A stretch of 26,639 nt of DNA. Origin: a virus. Lineage: Duplodnaviria > Caudoviricetes. The DNA lies in IMG/VR virus record IMGVR_UViG_3300032295_000123, positions 1-26,639 of that record. One strand, 5' to 3'. Below the pieces are notes generated by a model that saw only the letters and a list, made by a program, of their open reading frames with translations, had not been told where the DNA came from and did not search any database. The position numbers and the translations under genes were made by a program. Numbering within the stretch: position 1 is the stretch's first letter; the number at the start of each line of letters is the position of its first letter. Positions 2,384 through 23,300 of the stretch are shown here, piece by piece.

Positions 2384-3889
2384 TTAGCGCTTGTCAGGAG
2401 TAAAGCCAGCGGGCGGTGGTGGTGGCATTGTGCCACCCCTTGGGCTCCGTGCGCTACCCCCGCCCCCAGAAACAGCAGATTCAGAGGCCTCAAATATCTT
2501 GCGTTGCTTGGCTGCTTCTGCGTCGTACAGAGCTTTAGCGTCCGCATCCCTACCTTCGCGTACGGCTCTCCGATATGCTGGGTTCAGGTTTGTGAACTTG
2601 TTCATCGCTGCAGCAACATCTTGATCAATTCTCTGCTGCACGGGGGCCGTAGTCACTCTAGCTTTTTCTGGCGCAACGTCGCTGGTCGAGAACGAAGTCT
2701 TGGTTTGTTGGGCAGTTAACTTACCAGCTTCTGCTCGAATACGTGCTTCGAACGCTTTTTCAGACTCACCCGGTTTTGGCCTACTAGTCGCCATCATATT
2801 AGCTACGTTATCTGCGTATAGCTGCTCAGCCAGTTTAGGACCGCCAGCGCCAGCACCAGTACGGGGGCGAGTAGCTGCTAGAGCCTTGGCGTCGAGATCA
2901 GCCAGAGCTTTGGCCTTGTCAAGCTCAAACTTAGCGGCATCGGCTTTGTCTTTACGCGCAGCTTCTCTTGCAGCTTGTGCGCCACGGATGTCACCCATAC
3001 GCTCCTTACGTTGTGCGTCGGCCAAGGCAAAACGCATGTTTTCAATAGAGCGTTGTTCAGCTATATCGGCGCGTTGGACTTCGCCCATCTCTTTGGCAAA
3101 TACAGGGAACGCTTTTGCTGCACCACGAGCCAGCGTGTTGCCCTCAAGGATCGCCCCAGCCGCAGCAAGCAAAGCCAATCCTTGGCCTTGGCGCGAAGTT
3201 TTAGCTCGGCCAGCTTCACGCTCGTCAAGCTTCCCAAACGCGGGTTTGTAAATATCTGGACCACCAAATTTTTCAACTTGCCGCATATATGCAGCAACTG
3301 CTGCGTCATCTTCTTCTGGTGTTGTGGTTCCGCGAGTCAGACGTTTAATCAAATTGCGAGTTTCTTGGGTGTCCTCAAACGCTCGGGCTTGTAGCCCAGC
3401 ATTACCCTCACCTGCGGGTTCGACTTCTCCGTCTGTACCTATTCTGCGAGTAGCGTCGTCGCTCGCTGCAAGTGCCTCGGGGTCTCCCGTGTTTAAACCA
3501 CCTGCTTGGAACGCAACAATGCCGCCCTCTGCGTAGTCCTCTTCGGAAGTAGGCAGGCCAGCCAGACCACCGGATGCTTGCATATCAGGAGCTTGAGCCA
3601 TTTGCTGTGGAGCTTGGCCCTGTGGCATTTGACCTGCGGGAGCGCCCATAGGCAGCATGCCTGCCAGACCTTGAGGTGCAACTGCTTGCGAAGCCAGAGA
3701 CGGAGCCGACGTAGGCCCTTGAGCCTGTTGAGCCATCTGCATGGCGTTCGACTCTTTAATGAGCTGCAGCGCACGAAGCGCTGTGTAGGGGTCCAAATTA
3801 GGATCAGGGCCCTGACCTAAAACTGTGGCTTGCAAAACTTGCGGGTTGCTCTTGAACCGCTCGGCAAAGACTGAGGCCTTATCAATCAT
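2384..3889 (-). CDS. Putative ejection / internal virion protein (501 aa)
   Basis: AAGGGAAG upstream of ATG; Ala/Gln-rich coiled coil, hydrophobic LALLAAAGAIL segment, YAEGG/FQAGG motifs; position in cluster. Confidence 0.7.
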   Translation of the reverse strand: MIDKASVFAERFKSNPQVLQATVLGQGPDPNLDPYTALRALQLIKESNAMQMAQQAQGPTSAPSLASQAVAPQGLAGMLPMGAPAGQMPQGQAPQQMAQAPDMQASGGLAGLPTSEEDYAEGGIVAFQAGGLNTGDPEALAASDDATRRIGTDGEVEPAGEGNAGLQARAFEDTQETRNLIKRLTRGTTTPEEDDAAVAAYMRQVEKFGGPDIYKPAFGKLDEREAGRAKTSRQGQGLALLAAAGAILEGNTLARGAAKAFPVFAKEMGEVQRADIAEQRSIENMRFALADAQRKERMGDIRGAQAAREAARKDKADAAKFELDKAKALADLDAKALAATRPRTGAGAGGPKLAEQLYADNVANMMATSRPKPGESEKAFEARIRAEAGKLTAQQTKTSFSTSDVAPEKARVTTAPVQQRIDQDVAAAMNKFTNLNPAYRRAVREGRDADAKALYDAEAAKQRKIFEASESAVSGGGGSARSPRGGTMPPPPPAGFTPDKR

Positions 3890-3898
3890 GATCTTCCC

Positions 3899-4924
3899 TT
3901 ACACCAAGTTGTTCAAGGCGAGTGCGCCAATGCCGCCGCCGTTTGAGTACGCCATACCACCGTCGGCCATAAGCTTGGAAATACCCGCTGCGCCCAGACC
4001 CAAGGCCGTAATGTTCTGCATCGCCGATGGGGGAGCTTGATAAATGGCAGAGCCAGTTGAAGTGAGCGGCACGCCACGAATGATGTCCGACATGAAGCTC
4101 AAGTTTTTGTATGGGTAGTTTTGCGCGTTGAGGAAATCCTGATACTTGGTATCGAGGTCTTTCTGTACTTGTGCTTGCTGCTGCAGACCGTACTGGTTTT
4201 GCAGGGCATTGATGCCCATATTCTGCTGGTACTGTTGCTGGCCAAGCTGCCCCAGTGTGCTGGCACCGGTCATAGCTGTCTGCAGCCCTTGAAGGCCGAG
4301 ACCCGCGCCAAACTGACCCTGCTGTGCGTTGAGTTGAGCAGCAGCTTGGTTTTGCGCCTGAGCCTGATTGAACTGTTGCTGAGCGTTCTGAAACGCGTTC
4401 TGCAACCCAGTAGCTTGAATGTCACCCTTTTGACGGGCTAAGTTACCGGCAGCTTGTGCACGCATCAGGTAGTCACCGCTACCGCCAAACGCGCCGGACC
4501 GAGCAGCTTGAGCGCCTTGGGCTTGCTGGGCAATCGCAGCTTGACGAGTGGCGTCTTGTTGCTGGCGCTCAACTACGTTCTGCATGTACGGAGACATGTA
4601 CTGGCTTACGTTCTCGCCTGTAAACTTTTGAGCTTGGTAGGGGTCAAACTTGTACTGCGTATTCAGAGCGCCAAGCCCCGCTGTGCCCGCCATAGCAGTC
4701 GCGTCTTTTAGCTGCGGCTGAGACTGCATCAAAGCTGCGTTTTCGTACGACTGCTTTTGCAGTGGGGAGAACTGAGCAACCCGCTCCCCCTGATACTGCA
4801 TGTATGGGTTGTACTCTATGTCGGTAAGCGCCTCTGCTTGACCCAAAAGTTTTTGAGCATAGGGGGCAACTTCCGGCGCAAAGCCGTAGTTTGTTTGCGT
4901 GATTTGTGTGGGGGTAGTGGCCAT
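3899..4924 (-). CDS. Putative DNA pilot / ejection protein, Gln/Ala-rich (341 aa)
   Basis: AAGGAG RBS; YMSPYMQNVV and GAFGGS motifs, Gln-rich helices, C-terminal ALGLGAAG hydrophobic segment typical of podophage internal proteins. Confidence 0.7.
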   Translation of the reverse strand: MATTPTQITQTNYGFAPEVAPYAQKLLGQAEALTDIEYNPYMQYQGERVAQFSPLQKQSYENAALMQSQPQLKDATAMAGTAGLGALNTQYKFDPYQAQKFTGENVSQYMSPYMQNVVERQQQDATRQAAIAQQAQGAQAARSGAFGGSGDYLMRAQAAGNLARQKGDIQATGLQNAFQNAQQQFNQAQAQNQAAAQLNAQQGQFGAGLGLQGLQTAMTGASTLGQLGQQQYQQNMGINALQNQYGLQQQAQVQKDLDTKYQDFLNAQNYPYKNLSFMSDIIRGVPLTSTGSAIYQAPPSAMQNITALGLGAAGISKLMADGGMAYSNGGGIGALALNNLV

Positions 4925-4935
4925 GTTTTGGCTCC

Positions 4936-7137
4936 TTATGCGGGGAGGTATTTGTCGGCACGGCTGTTAACAGCTACGCGCTTCTTGCCAGTAGTTTTGC
5001 GTCGGGCTCTTTGTACGCGGTCCATCATGGCGTACAGCTTACGCGCACCAGCTTCAGTCGAGCCGTTGCCCAACTCAGACACGATACGTGCAGGCACCAC
5101 GAATTCACCGTCGGCTAAACGTGCAGGGCGTTTGTTGCCGATTGAGGCAGGGATGCTGTCAGACACACCGTCACCGGGGCCACGCAGCAAGCGTCCGCCG
5201 TCAGAGTAATCGCCGAGGTTGTACCCAGCTCGTCCGCCAGCAGCCAAAGCGCCGAGACCGCCGATAGCCATGTGTTGGACCATGCCGCCGTTAGCTCCGG
5301 CAGGAGGGGGTTCTTCACCTCTTGGTGGCGTAATAGGCCTTGCTTCCCATTTTTTATCAACCGTGTTGAAAACCCATTCATTACCCGCGCCGGGATCAAA
5401 AGTTGGCTTTGTGTCTTTGTTTGCCAGCGCTGCTTCTTTTTCAGCGGCAAGCACGTAGGAAGGTTTGACATACTCAGGATTCGGCTTGTACGTGCGCGTA
5501 ACTGGGTCGAATATGTACTTCTTGGTTTTCATGTTCACCGGCATACGACCGACAGACTCGTAGTACGGCTTCATGATTTCGCCGGTAGGAGTGTAGGGAG
5601 TCGGCGAGTACGCAGTTTTACCTGACAGGACGTCAAACGATTGCCCAGAACCACCCGTCTGAGTGTTGTATTTGGCGTTGAAATCAGCCATGGACGTAGG
5701 TACGTATGGGGTATAGCCCAAGCTACCACCGCCCGCTGTATAAACGTCACGTACATTCCCCATGCCCGTGAAGCCGCCTTCTGGCCGACCGGGGATATTG
5801 GGTGTGACTACAGTGCTGCCACCGCCGCCACTGCCTCCGGGAGAGGGTGTTGTTCCGCCTCCGCCTCCGCCTCCGGGAGAGGGTGTTGTTCCGCCTCCGC
5901 CTCCGCCGCCTCCGCCGCCTCCGCCGCCTCCGCCGCCTCCGCCGCCTCCGCCGCCTCCGCCTCCGCTGGTGGTACGGTATATAACGCCATCAATAGCGAC
6001 ATCATCGGGGCCCATTTGGGCACGCAAAGCGTCTCTAGCAGCCTTACGCTCGGTGCGTTCCATGTCCATCTGCTTGATGCGGTTGTAGGCTTGCTCATCA
6101 GTCTCTCCGTACAGCATGCCTTTAACGCCCTGCGCCAGCATTGGCGCAAGAATCGGATCAGAAGGCGTGTAAGCCTTCAGTTTGGCTGCAGCGTCTGCGT
6201 CCTGCTGTGCTTTAAGCTCCGTTAACCGTTGTATCTCTTCTGGCGAAGTTCTGCCACCGCCGGTAACAAAACCCCCATCGTCAAAAGCTGCGATACCCCC
6301 ACTGGCCATGCGCACAACGGGTTCACTGCGCTGTGCAAAATCCAGCACGCCGGGGTTGTAGCCGCCGTCGGCCATAGCCATCAATCCACCTCCAGCAGCT
6401 CTAGCCGTGGCTTCGTATGGAACACCGACTTCGTACGTACCACCATAGGGGTCATACGCATATGGGCGAATCATGCCGGGTTTGGTCACAGTTTGTGGGA
6501 GTTTTGATTCCACAGCCGCGCCCGCCAAAATCGCTGGCCCTGCGGCGTACATCAAGTTTTTAGCGTTGTCTCTAGCAAAAGAGGCAGCTGCTTGTGGGTT
6601 AGCCGTAGCTGCGTTAAAACCCGCAGACAGTCTATCCGCGAACGGTGTAGTTTTAATCGCATCAGCCGCAGCTTGATTAAGCACGCCTTGTTCAGTTAGG
6701 CCAGACTGGGCCATTTGTGCCGCAATTTGTTCTTGCGTGAGTGCCCCCATAGCACCCTCTTGCACAGCACCAATCCCAGCGCCAGCCAATCCAGCACTAA
6801 AACCGGCTCCGCCGTACGCTCCCAGACCAGCCGAAATGCCCCTGCCGATGTCGCCAGTACGGACAGCCTCAGCTCCACCAACAATCATGCCCGCAGTCAT
6901 GGGGTTAATCGCCCCACCAGACAAATAGCTAAGGCCAAAACCAATAATAGTCGGTAAAAGTTTCTTCAGAAATCCAGCTTCGGGTAGGCCTGTCTCGGGG
7001 TTGATGGTCAACGAGCCGCCGTGACTCTCGGCCAAAGCTTGAAGGCCCCTAACTTCTTCGGGGGCCATGTGGACAAGCATCGTGTCAGGGCCGCGACCCT
7101 TGGATGCCATGTGGTCGGCTAGTACTGCAAGGCTCAT
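4936..7137 (-). CDS. Putative ejection / internal virion protein (733 aa) with poly-Gly linker and C-terminal GPGDGVSDSIPA...GEFV domain
   Basis: GAGAGG RBS; N-terminal GRGPDTMLVH...TINPETGLPEA motif, Gly/Ala hydrophobic segments, many xAxGG motifs. Confidence 0.75.
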   Translation of the reverse strand: MSLAVLADHMASKGRGPDTMLVHMAPEEVRGLQALAESHGGSLTINPETGLPEAGFLKKLLPTIIGFGLSYLSGGAINPMTAGMIVGGAEAVRTGDIGRGISAGLGAYGGAGFSAGLAGAGIGAVQEGAMGALTQEQIAAQMAQSGLTEQGVLNQAAADAIKTTPFADRLSAGFNAATANPQAAASFARDNAKNLMYAAGPAILAGAAVESKLPQTVTKPGMIRPYAYDPYGGTYEVGVPYEATARAAGGGLMAMADGGYNPGVLDFAQRSEPVVRMASGGIAAFDDGGFVTGGGRTSPEEIQRLTELKAQQDADAAAKLKAYTPSDPILAPMLAQGVKGMLYGETDEQAYNRIKQMDMERTERKAARDALRAQMGPDDVAIDGVIYRTTSGGGGGGGGGGGGGGGGGGGGGGGGGTTPSPGGGGGGGTTPSPGGSGGGGSTVVTPNIPGRPEGGFTGMGNVRDVYTAGGGSLGYTPYVPTSMADFNAKYNTQTGGSGQSFDVLSGKTAYSPTPYTPTGEIMKPYYESVGRMPVNMKTKKYIFDPVTRTYKPNPEYVKPSYVLAAEKEAALANKDTKPTFDPGAGNEWVFNTVDKKWEARPITPPRGEEPPPAGANGGMVQHMAIGGLGALAAGGRAGYNLGDYSDGGRLLRGPGDGVSDSIPASIGNKRPARLADGEFVVPARIVSELGNGSTEAGARKLYAMMDRVQRARRKTTGKKRVAVNSRADKYLPA
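5833..5964. repeat. Tandem repeats: 2 x 36 bp (5833-5904) then 6 x gccgcctcc (5905-5958), encoding GGGGGGGTTPSP units and a ~25-Gly run
   Basis: Read directly from the sequence. Confidence 0.95.
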
Positions 7138-7165
7138 ATTTGCCTCTCAAAATGGGGGTTGGTTG

Positions 7166-7194
7166 ATAATATCATGCTGATGTCTTTATACGAA
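7166..7194 (-). promoter_or_regulatory. Possible extended -10 sigma70 promoter for the ejection-protein genes
   Basis: Minus strand TTCGTA-17 nt-TATTAT with TGn extension, ~28 nt upstream of ATG 7137, in one of the few intergenic gaps. Confidence 0.35.
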
Positions 7195-7438
7195 GCGCTT
7201 GGCTCGTAGTCCCTGTAGTAGTGTCTCTGAAGACATCGCCGATCCGTAGACTGGGTAAATCTGCGTCAGTCGGCAGCGTACCGATGTCTAGGTTGAGCGT
7301 AGTCCCGCCCATATCGCCGGGGTTGGACAGTTGGTTAAAGAACAAACGCAAAACATTGTTCAGTTGGTCTTGATACCGGCGTTCGTATTCGTTAGGGGCC
7401 AACGGCAAGTTGGGCGGGGTTGCGTTTAGTTCAGCCAT
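7172..7438 (-). CDS. Conserved small phage protein downstream of the nozzle gene (88 aa)
   Basis: ATG overlaps upstream stop (TGATG); PNLPLAPNEYERRYQDQLNNVLRLFF helix. Confidence 0.75.
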   Translation of the reverse strand: MAELNATPPNLPLAPNEYERRYQDQLNNVLRLFFNQLSNPGDMGGTTLNLDIGTLPTDADLPSLRIGDVFRDTTTGTTSQALRIKTSA

Positions 7439-9531: not shown

Positions 9532-9547
9532 ACGGGGTATTCTCCTA

Positions 9548-10063
9548 TTAACTTAGGAACAACGCAATCTCTGCTTCCCGGCGCTTGACCAGCCCGGGAA
9601 GAACTTTGCCGCCACCTTTGGTCCAAACCCGGAACGCATCTGCTGCGCCATCCCAGTCACCCCGGTTGGCACGCATGCGGATGGTACTGCGCTGGAGGTT
9701 GCCCAGCCCGAAGTTAAAACTTATAGAGACCAGAGCGTCAAAGCTGCCTTGACGCCCAGCCACGCCGGGAACAAGACGAAGAACACCCCGTTCAAAAGTT
9801 CCGACATCAGTGCGGAATAGTTCGTCGATCTCCGTTTTCGTCCAGACACGGTTGTCCTCCGGTTTCAATGGGAACTCACTGCGGATCATGGGGATGTCCT
9901 CTTTGGTCTTGCCCGGTGGCCGCACCATGGGGAGCCTGATCTGCTCTTGATATAGGACATGGCCGTAGCCAATCGTCCAGATGTGGGCTGGGCAAAGGTA
10001 GGGCCGAGAGCGAAAGCCCTCGTACCTGTGCATCAGGTCTTCACCTGCCTTGCTCAGTTTCAC
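9548..10063 (-). CDS. Endolysin, GH24 phage lysozyme (171 aa)
   Basis: EG..RPYLCPAHIWTIGYGH catalytic motif, FDALVSISFNFG, LPGLVKRREAE C-terminus; GTG start overlapping holin stop. Confidence 0.95.
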   Translation of the reverse strand: MKLSKAGEDLMHRYEGFRSRPYLCPAHIWTIGYGHVLYQEQIRLPMVRPPGKTKEDIPMIRSEFPLKPEDNRVWTKTEIDELFRTDVGTFERGVLRLVPGVAGRQGSFDALVSISFNFGLGNLQRSTIRMRANRGDWDGAADAFRVWTKGGGKVLPGLVKRREAEIALFLS

Positions 10064-10563
10064 TTCTTGCTCCACTGACGGCTACCGAACCAGAACCCGA
10101 TGATCCCGCCAAGCATCGCCATCTCGTCGCTGGAGAAAATCAGGTCGGAGTAGCGGATGATGTCGTCAATGCTGGTGATCAGGCCGGGGGTCTGGTACAG
10201 ATACCAAGCCATAAAGGCGTTAATCGCCACCAGCTCAATCACGAAGATGTAGGTCACCGTGGGGCGCACAGTGCCCACGTAGTTGGCAACCCATGTAGAG
10301 GCCTTTTCCAGCACCTTGGCGTCATGCTCAAGAGCCGCCTCAGTCATCCGGGCATCGGTCTCCATCGCCACCTGATCGGTGCGGACCTCTTCGATCTTCA
10401 ACTGGGCGGCAAAGCCTTGGGCAGCCAGAGCCAGTTCGCGTTCGTTCTGGAGTGCAGCCAGCCGAAGCTCATGCGCTTGATCGGCCTTGTTCTGGAAAAA
10501 CTCCAGCAGTTTGGGCAAGCCGGAGATCAGCAGACCCCCAAGGGTTGAAAAAAGTGAAAGCAT
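10060..10563 (-). CDS. Putative holin, 3-TM type
   Basis: N-terminal hydrophobic helix, coiled coil, VRPTVTY then TM, C-terminal IIGFWFGSR motif; adjacent to lysozyme. Confidence 0.75.
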   Translation of the reverse strand: MLSLFSTLGGLLISGLPKLLEFFQNKADQAHELRLAALQNERELALAAQGFAAQLKIEEVRTDQVAMETDARMTEAALEHDAKVLEKASTWVANYVGTVRPTVTYIFVIELVAINAFMAWYLYQTPGLITSIDDIIRYSDLIFSSDEMAMLGGIIGFWFGSRQWSKK

Positions 10564-12617: not shown

Positions 12618-13026
12618 CTGGCGCGCTCCCGGGAAGATTGTCATTTACATCGGGCACAACAACCCACGAAACGGTGTCTTCATCCCACTTGTAGAACGGC
12701 GGGGTGTTTGGTTCTGGCATTGAAACAGGCGGCTCCCAGCCATAAGAAAAACTGTCGAACACCCAAGAAGGATAAGGTTTTGGTGCAGAAAAACCCACCC
12801 CATCCCAGATGGAACCGATACTTGCAAAGTTTTTGCGAAATGCTTTGGTTTGGTCTGGGTCGGGGGTATAGGTGCCGGGTGTGTAGTACACCCCGCCACG
12901 AGTGTTGTAGCTGGTCTGAATCCAAGTTGCCGGGTCGCCCCAGTTTCCCGTATTAATCTCGTCCTGCTCAATGACCAGCACCTGCAATACGACACCGTTT
13001 TCGTCAATTTGCGCAAAATGGCTCAT
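12604..13026 (-). CDS. Tail fibre-associated protein (140 aa)
   Basis: MSHFAQID...WIQTSYN...FRKNFASIG...PYPSW...YKWDE pattern; ATGA-coupled to the adhesin gene. Confidence 0.65.
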   Translation of the reverse strand: MSHFAQIDENGVVLQVLVIEQDEINTGNWGDPATWIQTSYNTRGGVYYTPGTYTPDPDQTKAFRKNFASIGSIWDGVGFSAPKPYPSWVFDSFSYGWEPPVSMPEPNTPPFYKWDEDTVSWVVVPDVNDNLPGSAPDVIG

Positions 13027-14030
13027 TTTGTAAACGTCCCTGAAGATGTAAACGTGTGGTAAGTGTATCCACCTGCCGACGTAACAGTGCCTCCGGTTGC
13101 AACTTGGCTTCCGGCGTATCGAATGATCACAATTCCTGAGCCACCGCTTCCGCCATTTGATGGGTTGTTCATTGATCCGCCACCACCACCTCCGCCGCTA
13201 TTGGCGGTACCCGGAAGTCCGTCGTCGGTAGCTCCGGAACTGCCATACCCACCATTTCCTCCACCGCCAGCCCCCCCTGCGGCACCAGAAAATGGCCCTC
13301 CGTTTGCATTGTTATATCGCCCACCACCACCACCACCAGCGTATGTGAAACCGTTGAGCCAAGTGGAGCCAGCCCCTCCGGTTGATTGCGCTCCAGTTAA
13401 ACCAGACCCTGCAGAGCTTGCGCCACCACCACCCCCACCACCGCGTAACAATCTACAGCAAGCCAAAGCCTCTGTGTACCCATTACCCCCGGCATTACCT
13501 TGACCTGCTGTGCCTGCGCCACCAGTAACAGCTTGCCAACTACCACCACCACCTGATCCGCCTGAGCTTGCAGGACGAGCGTTGTTGCCGTAATCTTGCA
13601 TCGCGCCATAACCGCCACCAGTAGAGGTTAGGCCGTTAAAGGAGGAATTTGACCCAGCCGTGCTAAGTGTGCTGTAAGGTGTTGCCCCGGGTCCTCCAGC
13701 TCCAACAGTTACTGCAAACGAGCCGCTGCCGATGTTTGCGGAGGCCGTTCTGTATCCGCCCGCTCCACCTCCGCCGTTACCTATTAAATAACCACCGCCA
13801 CCACCGCCGCCAGCAACAACCAAATACTCGATTGCCAAGGTGTTCGACTTCCCGTACAGAGAACTCATGCTCCACTGCGTGCCGCTGGTCGTGCTGACGC
13901 CAGCCAAAGTGCGGACGTTGGTCTGGTTCATCGAGATGGTCGCGGTCAGGCTCAGGCCAAGTTCTTGCGCAACACTGACCGGACTTGATGTGCCCCCCAA
14001 ACTCAGGGGGCCGCTTGAGGGCATTACCAT
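13023..14030 (-). CDS. Glycine-rich receptor-binding / adhesin-like protein (335 aa)
   Basis: Repeated GGGGG motifs separated by variable loops (polyglycine-II sandwich type), EYLVVAGGG start and GSGIVIIRY end; small N-terminal attachment domain ending SLYGKSN. Confidence 0.75.
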   Translation of the reverse strand: MVMPSSGPLSLGGTSSPVSVAQELGLSLTATISMNQTNVRTLAGVSTTSGTQWSMSSLYGKSNTLAIEYLVVAGGGGGGGYLIGNGGGGAGGYRTASANIGSGSFAVTVGAGGPGATPYSTLSTAGSNSSFNGLTSTGGGYGAMQDYGNNARPASSGGSGGGGSWQAVTGGAGTAGQGNAGGNGYTEALACCRLLRGGGGGGGASSAGSGLTGAQSTGGAGSTWLNGFTYAGGGGGGRYNNANGGPFSGAAGGAGGGGNGGYGSSGATDDGLPGTANSGGGGGGGSMNNPSNGGSGGSGIVIIRYAGSQVATGGTVTSAGGYTYHTFTSSGTFTK

Positions 14031-14039
14031 GCTTGCTCC

Positions 14040-14996: not shown

Positions 14997-14998
14997 GA

Positions 14999-17227
14999 TT
15001 ATCCTTTCGCCTCAAGGGCGGCTACACGGGCTTCAAGTTCGTTGATTGCGGCCAGCAGCAAGGGCACAAGGCGTTCGTACCGAACCGTCAAATACTTATC
15101 GTCAATAGGGGCTGGAGCAACAACCTCCGGCATGATGGCCTGTACCTGCTGAGCGGAAACACCGACTTCACGAACAGCGGTGTACCCGAGCGCCTGAGCA
15201 GTTTCATTAGCATGGTAGTAGAAGCTGTCCAGCGTGCGAACCTTCGCCAACGCATTCTCAATACTACCAATACGAGTCTTCAGCCGATCATCAGAGTAAT
15301 ACGCGGTGACGTTGTTGGTTGCGCGAATTTCACCAGCGGTGCCAGATGCCGCAGTGCCAACACCCAAGGAAGCCAACTGCGTGTTTGTGTTTGTTGCTTG
15401 CCGGGAGTCACTCAAGCGAGAGTCGTTTCCTTGACAGGCAGTACCCGAAGAGGTGCCATACGAAACGGTGGCAGTTACCGCAGCAGAACCGTTAAAACTT
15501 GTTCCCGTAAGCCCTGTGCCAAGAGTCAGCGCATTGGCTACAGCGTTTGCCGTGGTTGCTGTGGTGGCGGTTGTGGCTGAAGTAGCTGTGGTGGCGTTTC
15601 CACTCAATGCTGCAGTAATCGTCCCTGCGCTAAAGTTGCCTGAGCCATCACGGGCCACAACCTTACCGGCGGTGTTGGCAGATGTGGCGTCCACTGCCGC
15701 AGTGACTGCGCCAGAGCCGTTGTAGCTTGTGCCGGTCAAGTACGAACCCAGCGTCAGTGCGTTCAGGTTGCTGCCCAAGGCCACGCCCGAGATCGTGCCT
15801 GCGCTCCATGTAAACGCAGAGCCGTTCCAGTTCAGGACTTGGTTCGACGCCGAGGGTGCGACAGCAAACGATGTGGTGCCTGATCCGCTTTGAAATGGAA
15901 TCTGGTTAGCCGCGCCGCCTGCAAGATTAGTCGCTGTGGTTGCGCTTGTAGCTGCACCAGACAGGGTAGCCGTGATGGTCCCGGCGCTGAAATCACCCGA
16001 AGCATCCCGAGCCACAACCTTGGAAGCAGTGTTGGCCGATGTGGCGTCCACAGCAAAAGTGCGGGCAGCAGAGCCGTCAAACGTGCCACCAGAGGTCAAA
16101 AATGTGCCTGCCGTCAGGGCGTTGGCCACCGAGCCAGCAGCGCCTGAGATGTTGCCCGACACTGCTGCGCCAGAGATGGCGATGGCCGTTGGTGTGACGC
16201 CTGTGACCTGACCTTGTGCGTTTGTGGTGATTACCGGCACCGTAGCGGCATCGCCGTATGTGCCCGCAGTGCCGATGTTGGCGATGTTGAACGTGTAAGA
16301 CGGTGACTCGCTCAGCCCCGTACCTGCCGTGTAAGTGATCGGCGCAGAGAACTGCTGAAAGACAATTGCGGTTGTACCGATGGTGATCGGAGGTGGGGTC
16401 TGCTGCACCCAAGCGGTGTTGACGTTGGCCGTGCCGCCGGTCACCAAGAAGAAGTCACCCTCATCAATCTGATCGACACCTGTTCCAACAGAATCCATGT
16501 CTGTTGAGCGGGTCAGGATGTATGGCGTTCCAGCAGAACCGACCTGCGTGACAACGTAGACGCCGTTATTGGCTCCGGCCACTTCGTTCTTGACCAGAAT
16601 CCGGTTTGCAACCACGGTGAGCGTTGAGTCCACCGACAGAGCGCCGTTGGCGTTACCTGTGAGCGTTGCCCCTACCCCGGATGTGCCGTTGTTGTACGTG
16701 TTTGCTGGGAGTGCTGCTGTGGTGGCCAAGTCCACCGCTTCGTGGAAGTGAATGCCCGATGCAATGGCGTCGGCATATTCCTTGTTGACGATGTCCGTGT
16801 TGTTGGTAGGCGGAGTGGAAACCGTGCCCGATGTAATGTTGGCAGTGGTGATGTTGGCCGTGCTCGTGCCCAAAGTGCCGATGTCCAGCGTTGTGACGGC
16901 AGAGCCCGCTGCGTCCAGATACACCGCCCGAGAAGAGGGGTAAGTGACGAACACGTCTTTGGAGCCAGCGCCAAACGGCACCAGCGATCCTGCATTGCTG
17001 GACGACACCACAGTTGTCCGGGATAGGGTTGTGCCCGAAGCTGTGTAAGTGCCAACACCAACTTCCCAATCGCCCGTAGCAGCGTCCACGATGGCGTAGA
17101 AGGTTTGATTGCCGTTACCAACAGCAGCAAAAGACTGAAAGCCTGCGGCTGCCCCAGCCAACGTCACCGTGCCCGTGCCCGCTGTTGTGGTCGTTTCTTT
17201 GACGCGATCTTTGAGTACCAATGCCAT
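14999..17227 (-). CDS. Tail fibre with C-terminal intramolecular chaperone (peptidase S74), 742 aa
   Basis: Thr/Ala/Gly/Ser-rich repeats; YYSDDRLK autocleavage motif, GVSAQQVQAIMPEVV, VRYERLVPLLLAAINEL coiled-coil end. Confidence 0.9.
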   Translation of the reverse strand: MALVLKDRVKETTTTAGTGTVTLAGAAAGFQSFAAVGNGNQTFYAIVDAATGDWEVGVGTYTASGTTLSRTTVVSSSNAGSLVPFGAGSKDVFVTYPSSRAVYLDAAGSAVTTLDIGTLGTSTANITTANITSGTVSTPPTNNTDIVNKEYADAIASGIHFHEAVDLATTAALPANTYNNGTSGVGATLTGNANGALSVDSTLTVVANRILVKNEVAGANNGVYVVTQVGSAGTPYILTRSTDMDSVGTGVDQIDEGDFFLVTGGTANVNTAWVQQTPPPITIGTTAIVFQQFSAPITYTAGTGLSESPSYTFNIANIGTAGTYGDAATVPVITTNAQGQVTGVTPTAIAISGAAVSGNISGAAGSVANALTAGTFLTSGGTFDGSAARTFAVDATSANTASKVVARDASGDFSAGTITATLSGAATSATTATNLAGGAANQIPFQSGSGTTSFAVAPSASNQVLNWNGSAFTWSAGTISGVALGSNLNALTLGSYLTGTSYNGSGAVTAAVDATSANTAGKVVARDGSGNFSAGTITAALSGNATTATSATTATTATTANAVANALTLGTGLTGTSFNGSAAVTATVSYGTSSGTACQGNDSRLSDSRQATNTNTQLASLGVGTAASGTAGEIRATNNVTAYYSDDRLKTRIGSIENALAKVRTLDSFYYHANETAQALGYTAVREVGVSAQQVQAIMPEVVAPAPIDDKYLTVRYERLVPLLLAAINELEARVAALEAKG

Positions 17228-17236
17228 TTTGAATCC

Positions 17237-17887
17237 TTACGACGGTATCTGAGTCCAGTTGGTGGGCTGGCCGGTGTCAATTGTCGCCCAAACTAGCGTT
17301 CCGCCGATGTTAATGTTGAGCTGCACGCCCGTAGTGAGGACGTTAATAGTCTTAATCGCCCCAAACGTGCTCAGGGCGCTGACAACCTCTGCAATCGAAG
17401 CGTTTACGCTGACCTGCACCACTTGAGTTGCCGCGCCCGTGGCGCTTTCCGCGATAGCCACAGAAAACAACAGCCCACGGTTTGAAGAATCTGTACCGGT
17501 GGCCGCTTCAGTCTGTGCAGCCAAGACTGTGCTTGCTGCGGTTTGTGTCGCCGTGCCGGTGATGGTCTCTGCCTGTGCAGCCAAGAAAGTGCCGATGGCA
17601 GCCTGTGCGTCAGTAGCCCCGGCCTGCTCCAACATGCTGGCCAACATAGCAGCAATCACCGACTGCGTGTCTGCTGCGGTAGCTGTCTCTGCTTGTGTGG
17701 CCACTGCTGAAACGCTGGCCGATTGAGCATCTTGGCCTGTGGACGTCTCGTTGATGAGGCCACCTCGAATTAGGCTTGGGACTGCCTCCACAGCAGTGGC
17801 CGTAGCCGATTCAGTTGCGGAGACGGCAAACGTGTTCCCGCCTAAAGAGGCGAAGGGTGCTTGGGCAAAAGTGACATCACCAAACAC
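17237..17887 (-). CDS. Virion structural protein with Ala/Thr repeats (216 aa)
   Basis: AGGA RBS, GTG start; MFG..FAQAPFA N-terminus, repeated E(T/S)AT(A/G) units, C-terminal W..ID..Q..NW. Confidence 0.7.
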   Translation of the reverse strand: MFGDVTFAQAPFASLGGNTFAVSATESATATAVEAVPSLIRGGLINETSTGQDAQSASVSAVATQAETATAADTQSVIAAMLASMLEQAGATDAQAAIGTFLAAQAETITGTATQTAASTVLAAQTEAATGTDSSNRGLLFSVAIAESATGAATQVVQVSVNASIAEVVSALSTFGAIKTINVLTTGVQLNINIGGTLVWATIDTGQPTNWTQIPS

Positions 17888-17898
17888 CGCACGTCCTA

Positions 17899-18477
17899 TC
17901 AGGCTGCGTCGAGCGAGAAGGAATAGGTCACGTTCAGCGTGTCGCCGTTGTCCACAGTCTTGTCGCCGCCAGTGAAGTCACCCGCCGAGAACAAGATGCC
18001 GGATGTGCCGCTGCTCACGCTGGCCAACAGTGCGCCTGCGACCACAGTGCTGTTCACCAACATGGCAAACGAAGCAGGGGATGCGGAGTTGGAGATCACC
18101 GAGGGATCAGCCGTGGTGGCAGTACCAAATGTCACCGCCTTGCGGTTACCGGTGTATGCGGTGCCGGGGACCAACTCTGTCCAGCCTGCGTGTGTAGCAA
18201 GGGTATCGCCAGCGGCGAACGATGTGCCGGAGCCGGGACCTTCGACCAAACCCAGATACCACGCAGCGGTGTAGCCAGAACCAGAAAAGTACTTGCTGTT
18301 CATGTCCTGCAGGCCTTGGTTGACCACGAGGTTGTGGAAGGTGTCAGACCACTTCTCTTTGCCGTCTGCGCCCACGCAAGTGACGGTGAATACACCGCCA
18401 GCGCCAACACGTTCAGTGCCTGCGCGTTGGGTGATCAGGCCTGCGGTAACGCTGTCTGAGGCTTTGCTGTGTTCCAT
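17899..18477 (-). CDS. Virion structural protein (192 aa), tail region
   Basis: AAGGA RBS; NLVVNQG, WYLGL, GDTLNVTY beta-rich motifs. Confidence 0.7.
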   Translation of the reverse strand: MEHSKASDSVTAGLITQRAGTERVGAGGVFTVTCVGADGKEKWSDTFHNLVVNQGLQDMNSKYFSGSGYTAAWYLGLVEGPGSGTSFAAGDTLATHAGWTELVPGTAYTGNRKAVTFGTATTADPSVISNSASPASFAMLVNSTVVAGALLASVSSGTSGILFSAGDFTGGDKTVDNGDTLNVTYSFSLDAA

Positions 18478-18486
18478 GATATGTCC

Positions 18487-18933
18487 TTATGAAATACGCA
18501 CGATGGCGCTGTTGGCATCGGGGGTTGGGAAAATGATTTGGAAGGTGTCATTATTCACGGTCTTGTCTGAACCAAAATCCAGCACAGCCACGGACTTGTT
18601 GCCCTCGGTACTGTTGTAAATCAAAGCACCACGGGCCGTGAAGGTTGCACTAGTCCAAGAGGAGTTGCCAAAGCTTACGTAAGCAGTAGGCACGGAGCTG
18701 GAGTTGTTTGACGCCGTCGGGCTGGTCGTGATGACCAGTGTGTTACCGCCAGCCGTATACCCAGTGCCAACAACTTCGTTCGATGTGGTGTACACCGTTG
18801 TGGTGGGGCCAATGCTAGAGGCCCCTGTGTACAAGGCCACTTTAAATGTGTCCGCAGACGTTGGTCCAAAGTTGTGGACCCCTTGGAGGAGTTCAACTTT
18901 AAACGATGTGGTTGCGGTTTGTTGAATTGCCAT
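18487..18933 (-). CDS. Virion structural protein (148 aa), probable fibre attachment
   Basis: SFKVELL, FKVALYT, GYTAGG, ARGALIYN, VLDFGSDK motifs; starts 1 nt after adaptor stop. Confidence 0.75.
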   Translation of the reverse strand: MAIQQTATTSFKVELLQGVHNFGPTSADTFKVALYTGASSIGPTTTVYTTSNEVVGTGYTAGGNTLVITTSPTASNNSSSVPTAYVSFGNSSWTSATFTARGALIYNSTEGNKSVAVLDFGSDKTVNNDTFQIIFPTPDANSAIVRIS

Positions 18934-18934
18934 A

Positions 18935-19591
18935 TCAGGTCACCTGAATCCTTACCTGCCCGGAGCGGTATGCGTCCTGACGTTCGAGGCCATCACCAAG
19001 GCGTTTAGCCAGTGCAAGAGCTTCTTGATACTTGCCGTTATACAACGCCATCATATCCTGCTCACCCTTCATGTAGGTGTAAGCTTCAACCAAAGAACCA
19101 TAAAGCAGCACGCTGTCAAAGTTGTCACCCAACCACGAAGTGCCCGCAGTCACAATCGACTCGGGGTAGTAGAAGTAATGCAGCTCAGCCACGTAGGTAG
19201 CATCCGGTGTTGGGCCCAAGATGAAGGTCAGCTCGTTTGGGTCGTTGGATTGTGAACCAAACAAGGCGTAATATTTGGGCAGTGCCTTATCGTTGGGGTT
19301 TGGGTACGCCTGTCGGATGAAGTTCACATCCTTGTTCAGGAGATACTCGTAGTTCCCCAAGGCGTCTACCAACGCTAGCGAATACACAGACAAAAAGTCC
19401 GAGGGGCAAGCCAAGTACTTGTTGTTATTTGTGGTGGAACCCGTCACGTTTTTGCGCAGTGAAGGGAATTGGATGGTGTTGTATATACGCTGCTCAGCCT
19501 GTTGAACAAACACAGGTATCTCCGCAATAAAAGTTGCGTCCGTATTTTCTGTGTACGCTTGAATAGCGTCGCTGAGAGCAGCGTAGTTCAT
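18935..19591 (-). CDS. Head-tail adaptor / tail tubular protein A-like (218 aa)
   Basis: N-terminal helices (FVQQAEQRI), P.YYA, LGPTPD..Y..ELHY, LLYGSLVEA helix pattern. Confidence 0.7.
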   Translation of the reverse strand: MNYAALSDAIQAYTENTDATFIAEIPVFVQQAEQRIYNTIQFPSLRKNVTGSTTNNNKYLACPSDFLSVYSLALVDALGNYEYLLNKDVNFIRQAYPNPNDKALPKYYALFGSQSNDPNELTFILGPTPDATYVAELHYFYYPESIVTAGTSWLGDNFDSVLLYGSLVEAYTYMKGEQDMMALYNGKYQEALALAKRLGDGLERQDAYRSGQVRIQVT

Positions 19592-19839
19592 GCAGATGGC
19601 CCGCGAAACTTAGTGCCCTTGGTAGCCGCGCCTGTGCCACGTATCTTTTCGCCGGAAGTTTTTGTCGGCGGATAGTCTTGACTGCGCGTGTTTGCTACGG
19701 ACACGTTTGCTTTACGCATGGTTTCTTTTGCCGACTCTTCGCCAACAACAACTGATGCGTACACTTTAGGCTGGACGTATTTACCAATTGGGTCTTTGGT
19801 ATTCGCGTCAAAGTATTTGAACTCGTCTTGGCTGTGCAT
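19588..19839 (-). CDS. Small basic protein (83 aa)
   Basis: Tightly coupled; C-terminal KIRGTGAATKGTKFRG. Confidence 0.75.
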   Translation of the reverse strand: MHSQDEFKYFDANTKDPIGKYVQPKVYASVVVGEESAKETMRKANVSVANTRSQDYPPTKTSGEKIRGTGAATKGTKFRGPSA

Positions 19840-19840
19840 A

Positions 19841-20041
19841 TCAGACCCCCTTTTGCTTGCGACCGGGGCTCATTTGGTTAGCAACCTTAGCCAAATTGCG
19901 ACCCATCTTCAGCATGTCGCTGTTGGTTTTGCCGCCAGCACGAAGTTTTGTCAGCGGTTGGCCTTTGTGTTTAGCTTTCTCGTGCTTGTGCACTGCGCCA
20001 GCGATCATCATCCTGTCCTGCTTCAAATCTTTTTTGTCCAT
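19841..20041 (-). CDS. Small basic protein (66 aa)
   Basis: AGGAG RBS; VHKHEK..H and LRAGG motifs. Confidence 0.75.
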   Translation of the reverse strand: MDKKDLKQDRMMIAGAVHKHEKAKHKGQPLTKLRAGGKTNSDMLKMGRNLAKVANQMSPGRKQKGV

Positions 20042-20042
20042 G

Positions 20043-20474
20043 TCAGACTCCTATCTGTATCGTTACTGTACCAACTTCCACGAATAAAACCAAGTAGTTT
20101 GGTGTTAGCGCGGTGTCAAAAAATCTGGCCCCACCCACAGGGTTCCAGCCCCACTGAAAGACTCTACTGCCACCTTCAGGAAATCCATCAGCGTCAATCG
20201 AGGTGCCGTTTGTGTTTGAAAGCTGCAGCCCGCTCAAACCCGACTGATAATAACTCCGATCAGGGCGAGGATTCCTCAAGCCCTGCGGGTCGTCAACTGG
20301 GTACATACCCAATTGCAACTGTGGCTGATCGGGGTCCCAGCACTCGGGGCAAACCAACAAGTCGTAGTTCTTCGTCTTGATGATTTCTTTGCGCAGGACC
20401 TTTAGCTTGAACCGTTGATCACAACGGTCGCACTGCGCAATAGCCCATTTGCCAGAAGCAAACCGATTACCCAT
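20043..20474 (-). CDS. Zn-ribbon protein (143 aa)
   Basis: CDRC...CPEC plus WDPDQPQ and PRPD; TGATG coupled. Confidence 0.8.
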   Translation of the reverse strand: MGNRFASGKWAIAQCDRCDQRFKLKVLRKEIIKTKNYDLLVCPECWDPDQPQLQLGMYPVDDPQGLRNPRPDRSYYQSGLSGLQLSNTNGTSIDADGFPEGGSRVFQWGWNPVGGARFFDTALTPNYLVLFVEVGTVTIQIGV

Positions 20475-21403
20475 CAGGTGCCCCCAATAAACTGCTGCCT
20501 AGGCACGAAGCGAACCGCCGCCTTTTCCCGATCCTCGTCTGCCGCTAACTGCCAAGCTTCGTCGTATTGCTGCTTCAGTACGGGTAGGCGCTCAGCGCCC
20601 CCGGCAAGCTTTAGCGCCAGATAGTAAGCCAAACCTGCGGCCATGCAGGGGATAAAGCGGAAGGGCACGTCCATGACGTTCACACCACCACCCGCATCCT
20701 GCGTGCGGCGCAAACGCCAGTAGACCAGTGTGTATTGCTGAGCTGAATCTGGAGTCGGCCAAACTGTGACTGCTGGGACTTGGGCCAGATACACCGCAGT
20801 GGCTGTTGTATGCGAGGCGGCAGTTGTGTTCTGCTGCCCACGGAAACAATTGTTCAGGACATTACCCGAGATGTAACCGTAGTTAATGATCTCGTCGTCG
20901 ATCTTTATGAACCCAGCGGCGGGCAGGCCGATGACTGAGCTCAGCGTAATCTCAGTAGCTGTAGACGTAATTGACCCGTTCAAAGTCAAGCCAGTCGGCG
21001 AGTTTTGGCCGTCTAAACGCTGCACCCAGATTTGAATTGGTCTGGCTTGCTGAATTTTGTTCGGGATCGTAGCGTACGTAGAGACGCTGATACGCGTAAT
21101 TGTGAGGTCAGCCTGTGTGGAGGCTACGTTAGCGCCAGTACGAATGACGTGCTCAATCAGATCAACTGTGTCGTCCGGCAATGCGTAGGTATTCTGGCCC
21201 TGAGTGAGAACAATCTCACCCTGCTCAATCGTCCACATGTTGATGCCACGATTGGCCCAATCTGCAAACATGATATTCAGGCTACGCCGTGCAGTGCGCA
21301 AGTCATAGCCAGTGCGCAGCTCACCACCGGCACGTTCAAATGCTTCCTCGACCAGCTCTGATAGATCGAGGTTAAACGCTGAGTAGCCGGAAGTGGTTGC
21401 CAT
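20474..21403 (-). CDS. Second head-tail adaptor-like protein with inserted beta domain (309 aa)
   Basis: LVEEAFER, ARRSLN...WANRG, VWPTPD, GLAYYLA pattern like tail tubular A / P22 gp4-type adaptors. Confidence 0.65.
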   Translation of the reverse strand: MATTSGYSAFNLDLSELVEEAFERAGGELRTGYDLRTARRSLNIMFADWANRGINMWTIEQGEIVLTQGQNTYALPDDTVDLIEHVIRTGANVASTQADLTITRISVSTYATIPNKIQQARPIQIWVQRLDGQNSPTGLTLNGSITSTATEITLSSVIGLPAAGFIKIDDEIINYGYISGNVLNNCFRGQQNTTAASHTTATAVYLAQVPAVTVWPTPDSAQQYTLVYWRLRRTQDAGGGVNVMDVPFRFIPCMAAGLAYYLALKLAGGAERLPVLKQQYDEAWQLAADEDREKAAVRFVPRQQFIGGT

Positions 21404-21636
21404 TATCTAAATCCTGCTGTTTTCTTGGCGATGCGTTTGGGCTGCGCCACAAATTGTTTACCTGCCGCCTTGCCAGCACGCTTGGCTCTTGTGGTGGCCG
21501 CATACTCTGCGGGGCTGAGTGATTTTATCGCCTTCTCCGGCAAATAGCGCTCTCCAGTTTTGGAGGACGGCTTCCCACTCTTGGTGCGCCATTTCTGGTC
21601 GCCCCAGTCTTTGAGGGATTGCTGGGGCGCTTTCAT
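21403..21636 (-). CDS. Small basic protein, DUF5872-like C-terminal part (77 aa)
   Basis: QSLKDW..QKWRT, ERYLPEKA..SLS..E..AT.RAKR motifs; ATG 1 nt after upstream stop. Confidence 0.7.
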   Translation of the reverse strand: MKAPQQSLKDWGDQKWRTKSGKPSSKTGERYLPEKAIKSLSPAEYAATTRAKRAGKAAGKQFVAQPKRIAKKTAGFR

Positions 21637-21637
21637 A

Positions 21638-21913
21638 TCAGTCTCTGTACCCGCCGCCAGCGGCCTTGTACTTCTTGGCCACAAGCTGGGCCTTACGGGC
21701 AGACCACTGTCCTGCTCCGGTTCCCTGCGTTGCAGCAGCTTTGACTTGGCTCACGATCCGCTTGCGCAGCTCGGGCTTGGTGTAGTTGCCAGCAGCATTG
21801 ACCTTCCCACCTTCTTTGTACTGCGTGAAGTCGGTGTCATCCCGGCGAGCTTTACGCTTGCCTTTGGGCATCTTAGAGGGGTTTATGTCCCCCATACCTC
21901 GGGATGCCATCAT
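21638..21913 (-). CDS. Small basic protein, DUF5872-like N-terminal part (91 aa)
   Basis: GAGGTG RBS; YTKPELR...GQWSARKAQL.AK.Y..AGGGY motif. Confidence 0.75.
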   Translation of the reverse strand: MMASRGMGDINPSKMPKGKRKARRDDTDFTQYKEGGKVNAAGNYTKPELRKRIVSQVKAAATQGTGAGQWSARKAQLVAKKYKAAGGGYRD

Positions 21914-21922
21914 GATTTCACC

Positions 21923-22501
21923 TCAGTACATTTTGCACTTGGTCTTGCCCTTGGTGGCAATCCCGTCGGCGCGTTTAGAAGCGGTCATACCACCAGAAGC
22001 CATCTTCTTGATTCTGCCACCACGCTTGAACTCATCGTCGCCACGGTACTCAGACGGCTTGTCTTTCTCAGCGTACCTACGGGCTTTGCGCTCTGCATCC
22101 ACTTCGCGCATGGTCTCGTCAATCTCCATGTCGGCAAGACGTTCTTTGGCGCTCTTGGACAGCTCAACCTTGTCACGGCGATCAGCCGCTTTTTCGGCAG
22201 CGCGACCAAGACCAGACCCCTCAACGAGCTTTTTACCAACGCCGGTTTCTTCGTCAATGGCTCGACCCAGTGTATAGCCCGCAGAAAGAGCAGCTTGAGC
22301 AGCGCCAGCGCGACCCATATTACGAGTTTCCGCACGGCGACCAGCTTCGCGAACAGCTTCTTTAGCGCCGCCCGTCAGCTTGGACGAGTCTACGTCACGG
22401 CCTCGTTTGGACTTGGCCATGTCTTCTTTGACGCGCTCGATAACATCACCCTTGTTACCGGGGATGCCGCTCCATCGTGTACCGCGAATTCCGGTTGCCA
22501 T
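21923..22501 (-). CDS. Charged protein (192 aa) with C-terminal ADGIA.KGKT motif
   Basis: AAGGAG RBS; FKRGG, MASGG, RADGIATKGKTK. Confidence 0.8.
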   Translation of the reverse strand: MATGIRGTRWSGIPGNKGDVIERVKEDMAKSKRGRDVDSSKLTGGAKEAVREAGRRAETRNMGRAGAAQAALSAGYTLGRAIDEETGVGKKLVEGSGLGRAAEKAADRRDKVELSKSAKERLADMEIDETMREVDAERKARRYAEKDKPSEYRGDDEFKRGGRIKKMASGGMTASKRADGIATKGKTKCKMY

Positions 22502-22510
22502 GATTGCTCC

Positions 22511-22771
22511 TTAGCACATCTTGCCGCGAGTCTTACCCCGAGAGGCAATACCGTCGGCAGACTTTACATAACCGCCTTTTGCCTTCTTTTCGGCCAATTC
22601 GTTCATACCCACACGCGAGGAAAGGTCGTATTTTTCCTTTTTCTCGGCCTTGGGGGCTGGTGGAGTCTTGTCCGCAGCGTTGTACGCTTTGGTAGCTGCC
22701 TCTTGCGCCTTTTTGTCGGCAATCATCTGGCGGGCTTCACGCTCCGCAGGGCTCATTTCTTTTTCAGCCAT
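22511..22771 (-). CDS. Charged protein (86 aa) with C-terminal ADGIA.RGKT motif
   Basis: AAGGAG RBS; KAKGG, SADGIASRGKTRG. Confidence 0.8.
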   Translation of the reverse strand: MAEKEMSPAEREARQMIADKKAQEAATKAYNAADKTPPAPKAEKKEKYDLSSRVGMNELAEKKAKGGYVKSADGIASRGKTRGKMC

Positions 22772-22781
22772 AACGTACTCC

Positions 22782-23300
22782 TTAGCAAGCTTTGCCGCCG
22801 TAGGCCATGGCCTTACCGCCTTTTTTCATGCCCATAGGCTTGGAGCCCTTCATGGCAATCATGGTGCCCTTGGACAGACCTTTGGATTGGATAGCGTGCT
22901 CGCCCTTGCCCTTAGTGCCGCCAGATTTAACAGCGCCCATTTTTGCTTTGGTGATACCACCGTTAGCCATTTTGCCCTTGCCGTCAGCAGCAAAGTCAGG
23001 AACCATTTTCCCGCCCTTGTTGACCATAGTCATACCGCCATCAGCCATCTTTTTCATCTTTGTAGCCATAGTATCACCGCCTTCTTTCATGATTGACATC
23101 TTGCCGTGAAGTGTCTTGGGTTTGTTAACTTTTTGGAGGTCAGCGCGGGTCTTTCCAGAGCCTTTGCCGAACTTCAAACCTTTGCTTGTCTCGCTAAATT
23201 CCTTAGCGACAGACACCGGTACACCCGCAGCTTTTGCAAAGCCCGGGTTGTGTGCTGCAGCGTCCATGAAACGCTTTTGTTTTGCGCTAGTTGAGGGCAC
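22782..23300 (-). CDS. Lys/Met/Gly-rich basic protein (172 aa) with multiple M.xGG motifs
   Basis: AAGGAG RBS, GTG start overlapping upstream gene; S.KQ.RFM.AAAHNP.FAK N-terminus. Confidence 0.8.
   Translation of the reverse strand: MPSTSAKQKRFMDAAAHNPGFAKAAGVPVSVAKEFSETSKGLKFGKGSGKTRADLQKVNKPKTLHGKMSIMKEGGDTMATKMKKMADGGMTMVNKGGKMVPDFAADGKGKMANGGITKAKMGAVKSGGTKGKGEHAIQSKGLSKGTMIAMKGSKPMGMKKGGKAMAYGGKAC

Follow-up and report, generated by a model that had tools for sequence, protein, structure and literature searches.

A shared Gly-Gly peptide motif in the ejection-block and small basic proteins of an HTVC023P/MinM2-like phage: a possible maturation cut site and its candidate enzyme

The 26,639-nucleotide stretch analysed here (the window; IMG/VR record IMGVR_UViG_3300032295_000123) is the late region of a tailed phage. 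Its ejection-block proteins and small basic late proteins carry a conserved peptide tag, [FYM]-[AKS]-x-G-G (the motif). We propose that, during maturation, these proteins are cut within the motif, between the first residue and the following Ala, by a dimeric Asp/Glu module at the end of the 733-amino-acid (aa) protein of the ejection block. We give this reading a probability of about 0.38, within a range of 0.35 to 0.4 for the full version with this module as the enzyme. That the motif is a cut site is the safer part of the proposal and appears reasonably probable. This part is favoured because the cut measured in the tape-measure protein pb2 of phage T5 lies just within a tag of a similar kind. 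Maturation processing at a common motif is already known, as is the cleavage of tape measures. New here are the likely position of the cut and the connection drawn from the motif to the measured T5 site, a domain start in a crAss001 protein and a predicted site in lambda gpH.

Occurrence and conservation of the motif

The motif was originally predicted from 17 strict copies of [MYF][AKSQD]xGG in six open reading frames (ORFs), with one extra YAGGG in a Gly-rich adhesin. All of these copies were present, with the sequences as quoted. In the 35 window proteins, a count that takes in the open 793-aa ORF at one end, there were 18 strict copies. Per-protein shuffles (n = 25,941) gave 3.5 on average and never more than 13. 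Because the strict pattern had been fitted to this window, other DNA was tested with the slightly wider pattern [MYF][AKSQDNR]xGG. Four complete relatives contained 24, 18, 11 and 28 copies, where 6.5, 5.6, 6.0 and 5.5 were expected. The small basic proteins of 80 capsid-centred loci (n = 186) contained 225 copies, where 15.3 were expected and the maximum in 200 shuffles was 27. The enrichment in independent DNA was approximately 2- to 5-fold per genome and approximately 15-fold in the small basic family. A motif no more frequent than composition predicts would have spoken against the prediction; the enrichment survived composition-preserving shuffles. A chance pattern fitted after the fact would be in keeping with a pattern drawn from this window, but it is contradicted by the independent genomes and we consider it hardly credible. 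The glycine codons of the 17 copies were no more alike (0.38 and 0.40) than gene-wide usage (0.35). This indicates a peptide motif rather than a DNA repeat, and an origin as a DNA repeat was ruled out on this ground.

The motif was unevenly distributed over gene classes. In line with the claim that the motif avoids the capsid, adaptor, nozzle and lysis proteins, it was found in none of their homologues (0/80, 0/34, 0/72 and, for the lysozyme, 0/23). The presumed scaffold had it in 0 of 59 cases and the presumed portal in 1 of 47. The motif was present in all 84 members of the 733-aa family, 62 of 77 of the 341-aa family and all 14 of the 501-aa family (for these three families, the nozzle and the lysozyme, N was added to the pattern). 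The large terminase subunit, a class outside the original scheme, carried one copy in 29 of 29 cases (F-R-[QN]-G-G). In the terminases of the capsid-centred loci L095-L174 and of G006, G008, G009 and G010, a conserved A-L-x-R-F-R-[QKN]-G-G-[FY] (29/29) fits the motif; this copy could be a portal-docking copy, or unrelated. The cultured phages MinM2, HTVC023P and DSL-LC04 showed the same distribution as the window. GB2A, which shares the block through the module protein only, had the motif only around the module.

The predicted conservation in homologues was confirmed for many copies, while others were not positionally fixed. Conservation ranged from 43 of 45 homologues (Y644 of the 733-aa protein) down to 0 of 33 (M85 of the 172-aa protein); other fixed copies were kept in 28/31 and 13/14, and other unfixed ones in 1/33 and 1/45. 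This unevenness suggests that the copy number of the motif is fluid. It also agrees with a purely structural role as hinge or turn, without a shared partner, in which case short internal duplications would have multiplied the motif in low-complexity proteins rich in Gly, Met and Lys; the carriers are indeed Gly-rich. We consider such a hinge improbable, because it does not account for an enrichment that withstands shuffling, for glycine codons no more alike than expected, or for a motif common to non-homologous proteins and distant phages. Several small basic proteins (window positions 21923-23300, and homologues) share a tail after the motif, approximately S-x-R-A-D-G-x-A-x-[RK]-G-K-T-[KR]-G, which would come off as near-identical basic peptides. 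No description of the motif or the module was found in the literature; mostly open-access text was searched, so this is weak evidence of absence.

Position of the predicted cut

The T5 protein pb2 is cut after R1127, as determined by intact mass (PMC10038345), and intact masses of 121,683 and 9,702 were obtained without trypsin (PMC11937500). The sequence A-E-G-G-M-M directly follows R1127. A piece starting at A1128 computes to 9,701.7 Da, whereas neighbouring cuts compute to 9,858 or 9,631. In pb2, [AKS]xGG starts at 3 of 1,219 positions. T5-like Vibrio phages keep R-A-x-[GS]-G. Among the prophage matches to a T5-like alignment query, x-[AR]-x-G-G stood before G-E-x-G-x-E in 29 of 30, with Arg at P1 in 26. 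A 29-row profile of the prophage module, obtained with this query and containing no T5-like row, aligned to pb2 from exactly R1127 (22.9 bits). In prophage-like loci of Proteobacteria-side genomes (L515-L536), frames of approximately 180-230 aa carry R-A-x-G-G and GExGPE; their size suggests that they are gene-transfer-agent tape measures.

The cargo protein gp45 of crAss001 (Pfam PF25725, PDB 7QOG) resembles the window set in being a head-internal ejection protein of a podovirus with many x-[AKS]-x-G-G copies. Its portal-bound domain, modelled by cryo-electron microscopy as residues 425-552 (PMC10172136), starts at a motif copy, A425-F-G-G, after N, and contains an L-V-E-x-G-E-V strand. The x-x-G-G at this start was kept in 16 homologues, with G7 and G8 invariant. 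Neither "cleav" nor "proteas" occurs in the main text of PMC10172136. The protein differs from the window set in that neither sequence nor profile nor fold comparison gave a significant match to the window module: 0 of 39 module rows matched PF25725 at E<=10, while gp45 itself matched at E 2e-66. As a lead only, gp45 was the nearest named ESM Atlas cluster (score 0.85).

Because of the measured T5 cut (R|AEGG) and the crAss001 domain start (N|AFGG), the cut likely falls, by analogy, before the Ala, with Gly-Gly at P3'-P4', and not after Gly-Gly. In the window, the piece released by cutting Y644|S645 would have 89 residues (9.5 kDa), similar to the 92 residues (9.7 kDa) of the C-terminal T5 piece, and in both a G-x-E element follows the cut in a similar layout. 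T5 pb2 differs from the window in having Arg at P1, a single site and a GExGxE-type module that is not detectably homologous. Its authors read this module as a muralytic metallopeptidase motif (PMC10038345). The original prediction offered the motif either as a cleavage site or as a docking tag, and drew its analogues for cleavage from adenovirus, SUMO-like and C39 proteases. The cleavage branch gains support from the register in T5 and crAss001, but this register does not fit those analogues. The adenovirus, SUMO-like and C39 proteases have Gly-Gly on the N-terminal side of the cut or spanning it. Such di-glycine proteases cut at or after Gly-Gly, whereas the sole measured site with this motif, that of T5, is cut three residues before Gly-Gly.

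Tape-measure cleavage was reportedly first described for lambda, in 1974. A 2025 structural paper (PMC12617516) states that lambda gpH is cleaved near its C-terminus and gives the site and the catalyst as unknown. In gpH, F733-ATGG heads the module and Y778-ATGG stands after it. From sequence and by analogy with T5, we predict the cut at F733|A734. No further measured tape-measure cut site was found in PMC13033339, PMC1796659, PMC11661146, PMC10713586 or PMC5099701. For JBD30, PMC11445458 offers no more than a predicted Arg-C site, at 1066. The full-size gp96 of P23-45 is reported to be present in virions (bioRxiv 2022.12.01.518664).

The module and the candidate catalyst

The last motif copy of the 733-aa protein heads a stretch of approximately 90 residues with the conserved pattern GPG..SD.IPA.L.DGEFV, here called the C-terminal module. 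The motif glycines, D660 and G677-E678-F-V were among the positions invariant in 39 rows, and one Asp and one Glu of the module are invariant or nearly so. Identity of the 733-aa protein to its homologues was 0.62 for residues 1-60, 0.09 for 301-610 and 0.87 for 644-733. Within the variable middle of the gene, at about 5800-5970 (minus strand), a run of approximately 27 glycines is followed by TTPSPGGGG repeats. The module was approximately 90% identical among proteins that fall in separate 50%-identity clusters; 1,667 such clusters matched it at E<1e-30, and five near-complete relatives had one match each.

A 58-row profile without a lambda row found lambda gpH 718-776 at 38.6 bits (best shuffle 6.4). 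At the level of sequence, the window module is homologous to the module of lambda gpH and of lambda-type tape measures. It matched PHROG tape-measure families, and columns of PHROG_24 were common to the DSL-LC04 and lambda modules. It also matched JBD30 gp46 (8RK3) and, twice, Douge gp16 (8ZDO). With the DSL-LC04 module as tblastn query, 1,258 phage records matched at E<=1, and most of the 60 matches listed were tape measures. Like the lambda-type tape measures (gpH ~733-785, JBD30 gp46, Douge gp16), the window protein has the motif, as [FY]AxGG, and then G..G..D/E...A.[LV]..GEFV (G..G..D...A.L..GEFV in those tape measures) and a helix; lambda gpH is cleaved near this module. The window differs in that the module ends an ejection-block protein, with no tail-tube cassette, and in that the motif also occurs in at least five proteins without the module. 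The carrier does not look like the tape measure of a long-tailed phage: it precedes a PHROG DNA ejection protein in a region with SU10-type adaptors, and no window protein matched a tail-tube family in Pfam or PHROG. In Rhizobium phage RHph_TM27B (L375:1718-2806), motif and module end a Gln/Ala-rich, ejection-type protein of 362 aa, and the module thus appears to move between ejection genes. The domains of the 733-aa protein had been named as docking partners to be tested; the C-terminal one now turns out to be the lambda gpH tape-measure module, standing after the same motif. We regard it as a candidate reader of the motif or a candidate protease.

A second, N-terminal module stands at the natural N-terminus of the 733-aa protein and within the first 120 aa in 33 of 45 homologues. 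In DSL-LC04-type phages, a loosely defined motif lay within 40 aa upstream of it in 55 of 55 copies. Phages with an additional domain ahead of the N-terminal module thus have a motif in between, as one would predict for a site at which a new N-terminus is generated. By eye alignment, it may be a diverged copy of the C-terminal module; the profile of the C-terminal module did not detect it.

The original prediction also called for a search for a protease elsewhere in the genome, which was made in two complete relatives, G006 and G008. A Pfam scan at E<=0.001 covered 101 of their ORFs of 70-1,500 aa (70 from G006 and 31 from G008, the latter set omitting many counterparts). It found no prohead-protease, C39 or SUMO-like family, and many ORFs had no family. 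Among the ORFs scanned, no protease family lay between terminase and capsid. In the window, no di-glycine cysteine protease family had a Pfam match among 34 proteins. The only peptidase matches in the relatives were the putative metallopeptidase DUF2201_N, in the early region, and a weak Peptidase_M28, each in one relative and outside the structural block.

For the module of a relative, P0280 (42% identical), a symmetric homodimer was predicted through residues 21-37, which include the D22 and E32 strands. The run used residues 1-72 in two copies with a 78-row alignment. The score was 0.42, against 0.00 for the best of three controls, and the E32-Y33-V34 strands were paired. The runs agreed in at least 82% of contacts, with a partner pLDDT (predicted local distance difference test) of at least 61. 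Of the solved homodimers, 20 of 30 attain the mark for this score; of the single chains, 1 of 23 does. The models support self-association of the module, from which catalysis does not follow. Self-association fits the tandem module copies in Douge gp16. The paired Glu/Asp at the two-fold axis may form an acid-protease site. Dimeric acid (Asp/Glu) proteases have a two-fold dimer that carries paired carboxylates to a substrate groove; for the module, a symmetric dimer through the D22/E32 region is predicted, and no protease fold was matched.

We envisage the following course. The tagged proteins would be packaged into the prohead, and the module, dimerised at the portal end, would cut x|A-x-G-G. 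It would cut its own upstream motif, thereby freeing itself, and would act in trans on the copies in proteins that lack it; D660 and E678 would be catalytic. The ejection proteins would lose leaders and tails and become a trimmed ejection set, and the Lys-rich proteins would be reduced to small peptides, basic for the most part (for the 172-aa protein, 0.7 to 7 kDa). In a broader version, tape measures and ejection proteins of tailed phages at large would carry the Asp/Glu module (~60 residues) as a new kind of dimeric protease. The module would cut x|A-x-G-G in cis in lambda gpH (F733|A734), T5 pb2 and crAss gp45, and in trans in this podophage group, where the basic internal proteins would become short DNA-binding peptides. 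We consider this broader version rather unlikely. The proposal resembles the prohead maturation proteases T4 gp21 and SPN3US gp245 in its logic, by which a single short motif recurs in many proteins inside the head and is cut as the particle assembles. Those enzymes are stand-alone serine proteases with a motif before the cut, and they also process capsid or scaffold. In the present group, capsid and presumed scaffold lack the motif, and no such protease family was found.

Several observations weigh against the proposed cut and its enzyme. No similarity to the window/lambda type was detectable for the T5-type (R|AxGG..GExGPE) or the crAss-type modules: cross-type scores of held-out hidden Markov models (HMMs) lay within shuffles and hhalign probabilities were below 2% (0.2-1.3% in the T5-type test), for modules of 45-60 residues, near the limit of profile methods. 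Homology of the three module types, tried with hhalign and held-out HMMs, was thus not significant. A search for intermediates to the crAss type gave two weak, unconvincing matches in 401 Bacteroidota-side genomes. The connection with a measured cut is therefore limited to four residues in register and a comparable arrangement. With Arg at P1 in T5 (26/29 in its class), a trypsin-like host enzyme could explain that cut, and an older study by matrix-assisted laser desorption/ionization gave a different T5 site, as told in PMC11937500. Residue 425 of crAss gp45 is a model boundary rather than a measured N-terminus; [AKS]xGG starts at 11 of 842 gp45 positions, and the second modelled segment, 214-245, has its start 7 residues downstream of a motif. 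A cut of lambda gpH at 733/734 would give approximately 12.5 kDa, where approximately 14 kDa is reported (PMC12617516). The copy in all 29 terminases is one that a trans-acting protease must spare. The monomer models of the module reached pLDDT 57 and 69, with helices and no strands, and a pLDDT below 50 at the motif. On these modest models, no protease fold was matched (no Foldseek match at E<=0.001, no VIA-align Z>=5), nor was there a clear match to the gp45 domain fold in 7QOG. The P0280 dimer score sits just at the mark, with the motif outside the confident interface. No virion proteomics was found in the literature for this phage group. A resemblance of the module to a Hint domain or another known autoprotease fold found no support, with no Foldseek or VIA-align match on the modest models.

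These observations leave room for two other readings. The motif may serve for docking and stay uncut: as a short Gly-Gly turn, it would bind the module dimer, the portal or the scaffold and so load cargo into the prohead. The fluid copy number would suit this, as would the copies that often lie a few residues from a C-terminus, where a cut frees little. The terminase, which docks on the portal, carries a copy in 29/29. No protease fold was found on the modest models, and the crAss gp45 domain binds the portal wing (PMC10172136). A docking tag leaves unexplained that AxGG begins exactly at the measured T5 cut and again at the crAss domain start, and that the motif stands where the N-terminal module has its natural N-terminus. 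We hold it to be unlikely, although quite conceivable. Alternatively, the motif may be cut in the same register by a host protease or another phage protein, with the module as a released, self-associating anchor. The register is silent on the enzyme, no relation could be detected among the three types of module behind the motif, the crAss domain was seen portal-bound (PMC10172136), and the DUF2201_N and Peptidase_M28 matches provide possible enzymes. Both matches, however, lie outside the structural block and each in one of the two relatives scanned, and motif and module travel together across phages of Proteobacteria, Actinobacteria and Bacteroidota. We consider another enzyme rather unlikely.

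Gene layout and meaning of the motif

By capsid similarity (73% identity to MinM2/Pag-Yong1 and 64% to pelagiphage HTVC023P) and by the order of the ejection block, the phage is HTVC023P/MinM2-like; it is probably short-tailed. Every gene of the window lies on the minus strand. The late region contains the capsid gene, small proteins, SU10-type adaptors, fibres, a lysozyme, a 697-aa virion protein taken as the nozzle, and the ejection block (733, 341, 501 and >793 aa). The record ends upstream of the capsid gene, and the genes there were examined in relatives. The features are listed in Table 1. The 341-aa protein matched PHROG 4287 (DNA ejection protein, E 4e-13). The N-terminal 40 aa of the 172-aa protein matched PHROG virion structural proteins. 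The full-length 733-aa and 501-aa proteins had no Pfam or PHROG family. In the 501-aa protein, both strict copies follow a Q/P-rich leader.

Table 1. Modules, motif carriers and context genes of the window (nucleotide positions; the last column gives homologues with the motif)
Feature	Position	Strand	Motif copies or pattern	Homologues
172-aa basic protein	22782..23300	-	5 strict: 23076-23090, 23034-23048, 22956-22970, 22815-22829, 22794-22808	31/33
86-aa basic protein	22511..22771	-	one loose copy, KAKGG	3/4, same columns
192-aa basic protein	21923..22501	-	2 strict: 22016-22030, 21989-22003	13 and 17/19, same columns
91-aa basic protein	21638..21913	-	1 strict: 21806-21820	28/31
66-aa basic protein	19841..20041	-	one loose copy, LRAGG	18/21
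733-aa first ejection-block protein	4936..7137	-	5 strict: 6361-6375, 6295-6309, 6271-6285, 5257-5271, 5194-5208	
N-terminal module of 733-aa protein	6958..7137	-	GR..DTML.H..P.E..INP.TGLPE	
C-terminal module of 733-aa protein	4939..5208	-	motif Y644-SDGG, then GPG..SD660SIPA..LADGE678FV, two helices	
341-aa DNA ejection protein	3899..4924	-	2 strict near C-terminus: 3956-3970, 3935-3949	46 and 8/77
501-aa ejection-block protein	2384..3889	-	2 strict: 3521-3535, 3497-3511	13 and 9/14
Large last ejection-block protein, start only (open ORF, 793 aa)	2..2380	-	no strict copy	
Gly-rich protein	13023-14030		single YAGGG	
Major capsid protein (context gene)	25673..26584	-	no motif	

Some neighbouring genes were also observed. 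Directly after the capsid gene lies a 218-aa endonuclease-like gene (24960-25616, minus strand; PHROG endonuclease VII, E 2e-17), with 15 homologues among the 80 capsid loci; it is probably a homing endonuclease. The 742-aa fibre (14999-17227, minus strand) ends in a Peptidase_S74 self-cleaving chaperone domain, which is unrelated to the motif and was the sole peptidase family match in the window. In relatives (L001/L002, MinM2; L003, HTVC023P; L456; L460), a GroES-like co-chaperonin gene lies between the presumed portal and scaffold. In G006 (L458:2889-3338), the 736-aa module protein is followed by a GNAT acetyltransferase gene before the next ejection gene, at a place where the window has none. 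The capsid patterns match an estimated ~14,000 stored viral stretches.

The common module links tape measures with the ejection proteins of podophages. The analysis offers a residue-level prediction for lambda gpH (F733|A734) and a candidate catalyst, the Glu and Asp of the module. If the proposal is true, the module would be the missing catalyst of tape-measure cleavage, and the motif would provide a processing rule for unassigned internal proteins of a very abundant group of aquatic phages and of crassviruses.

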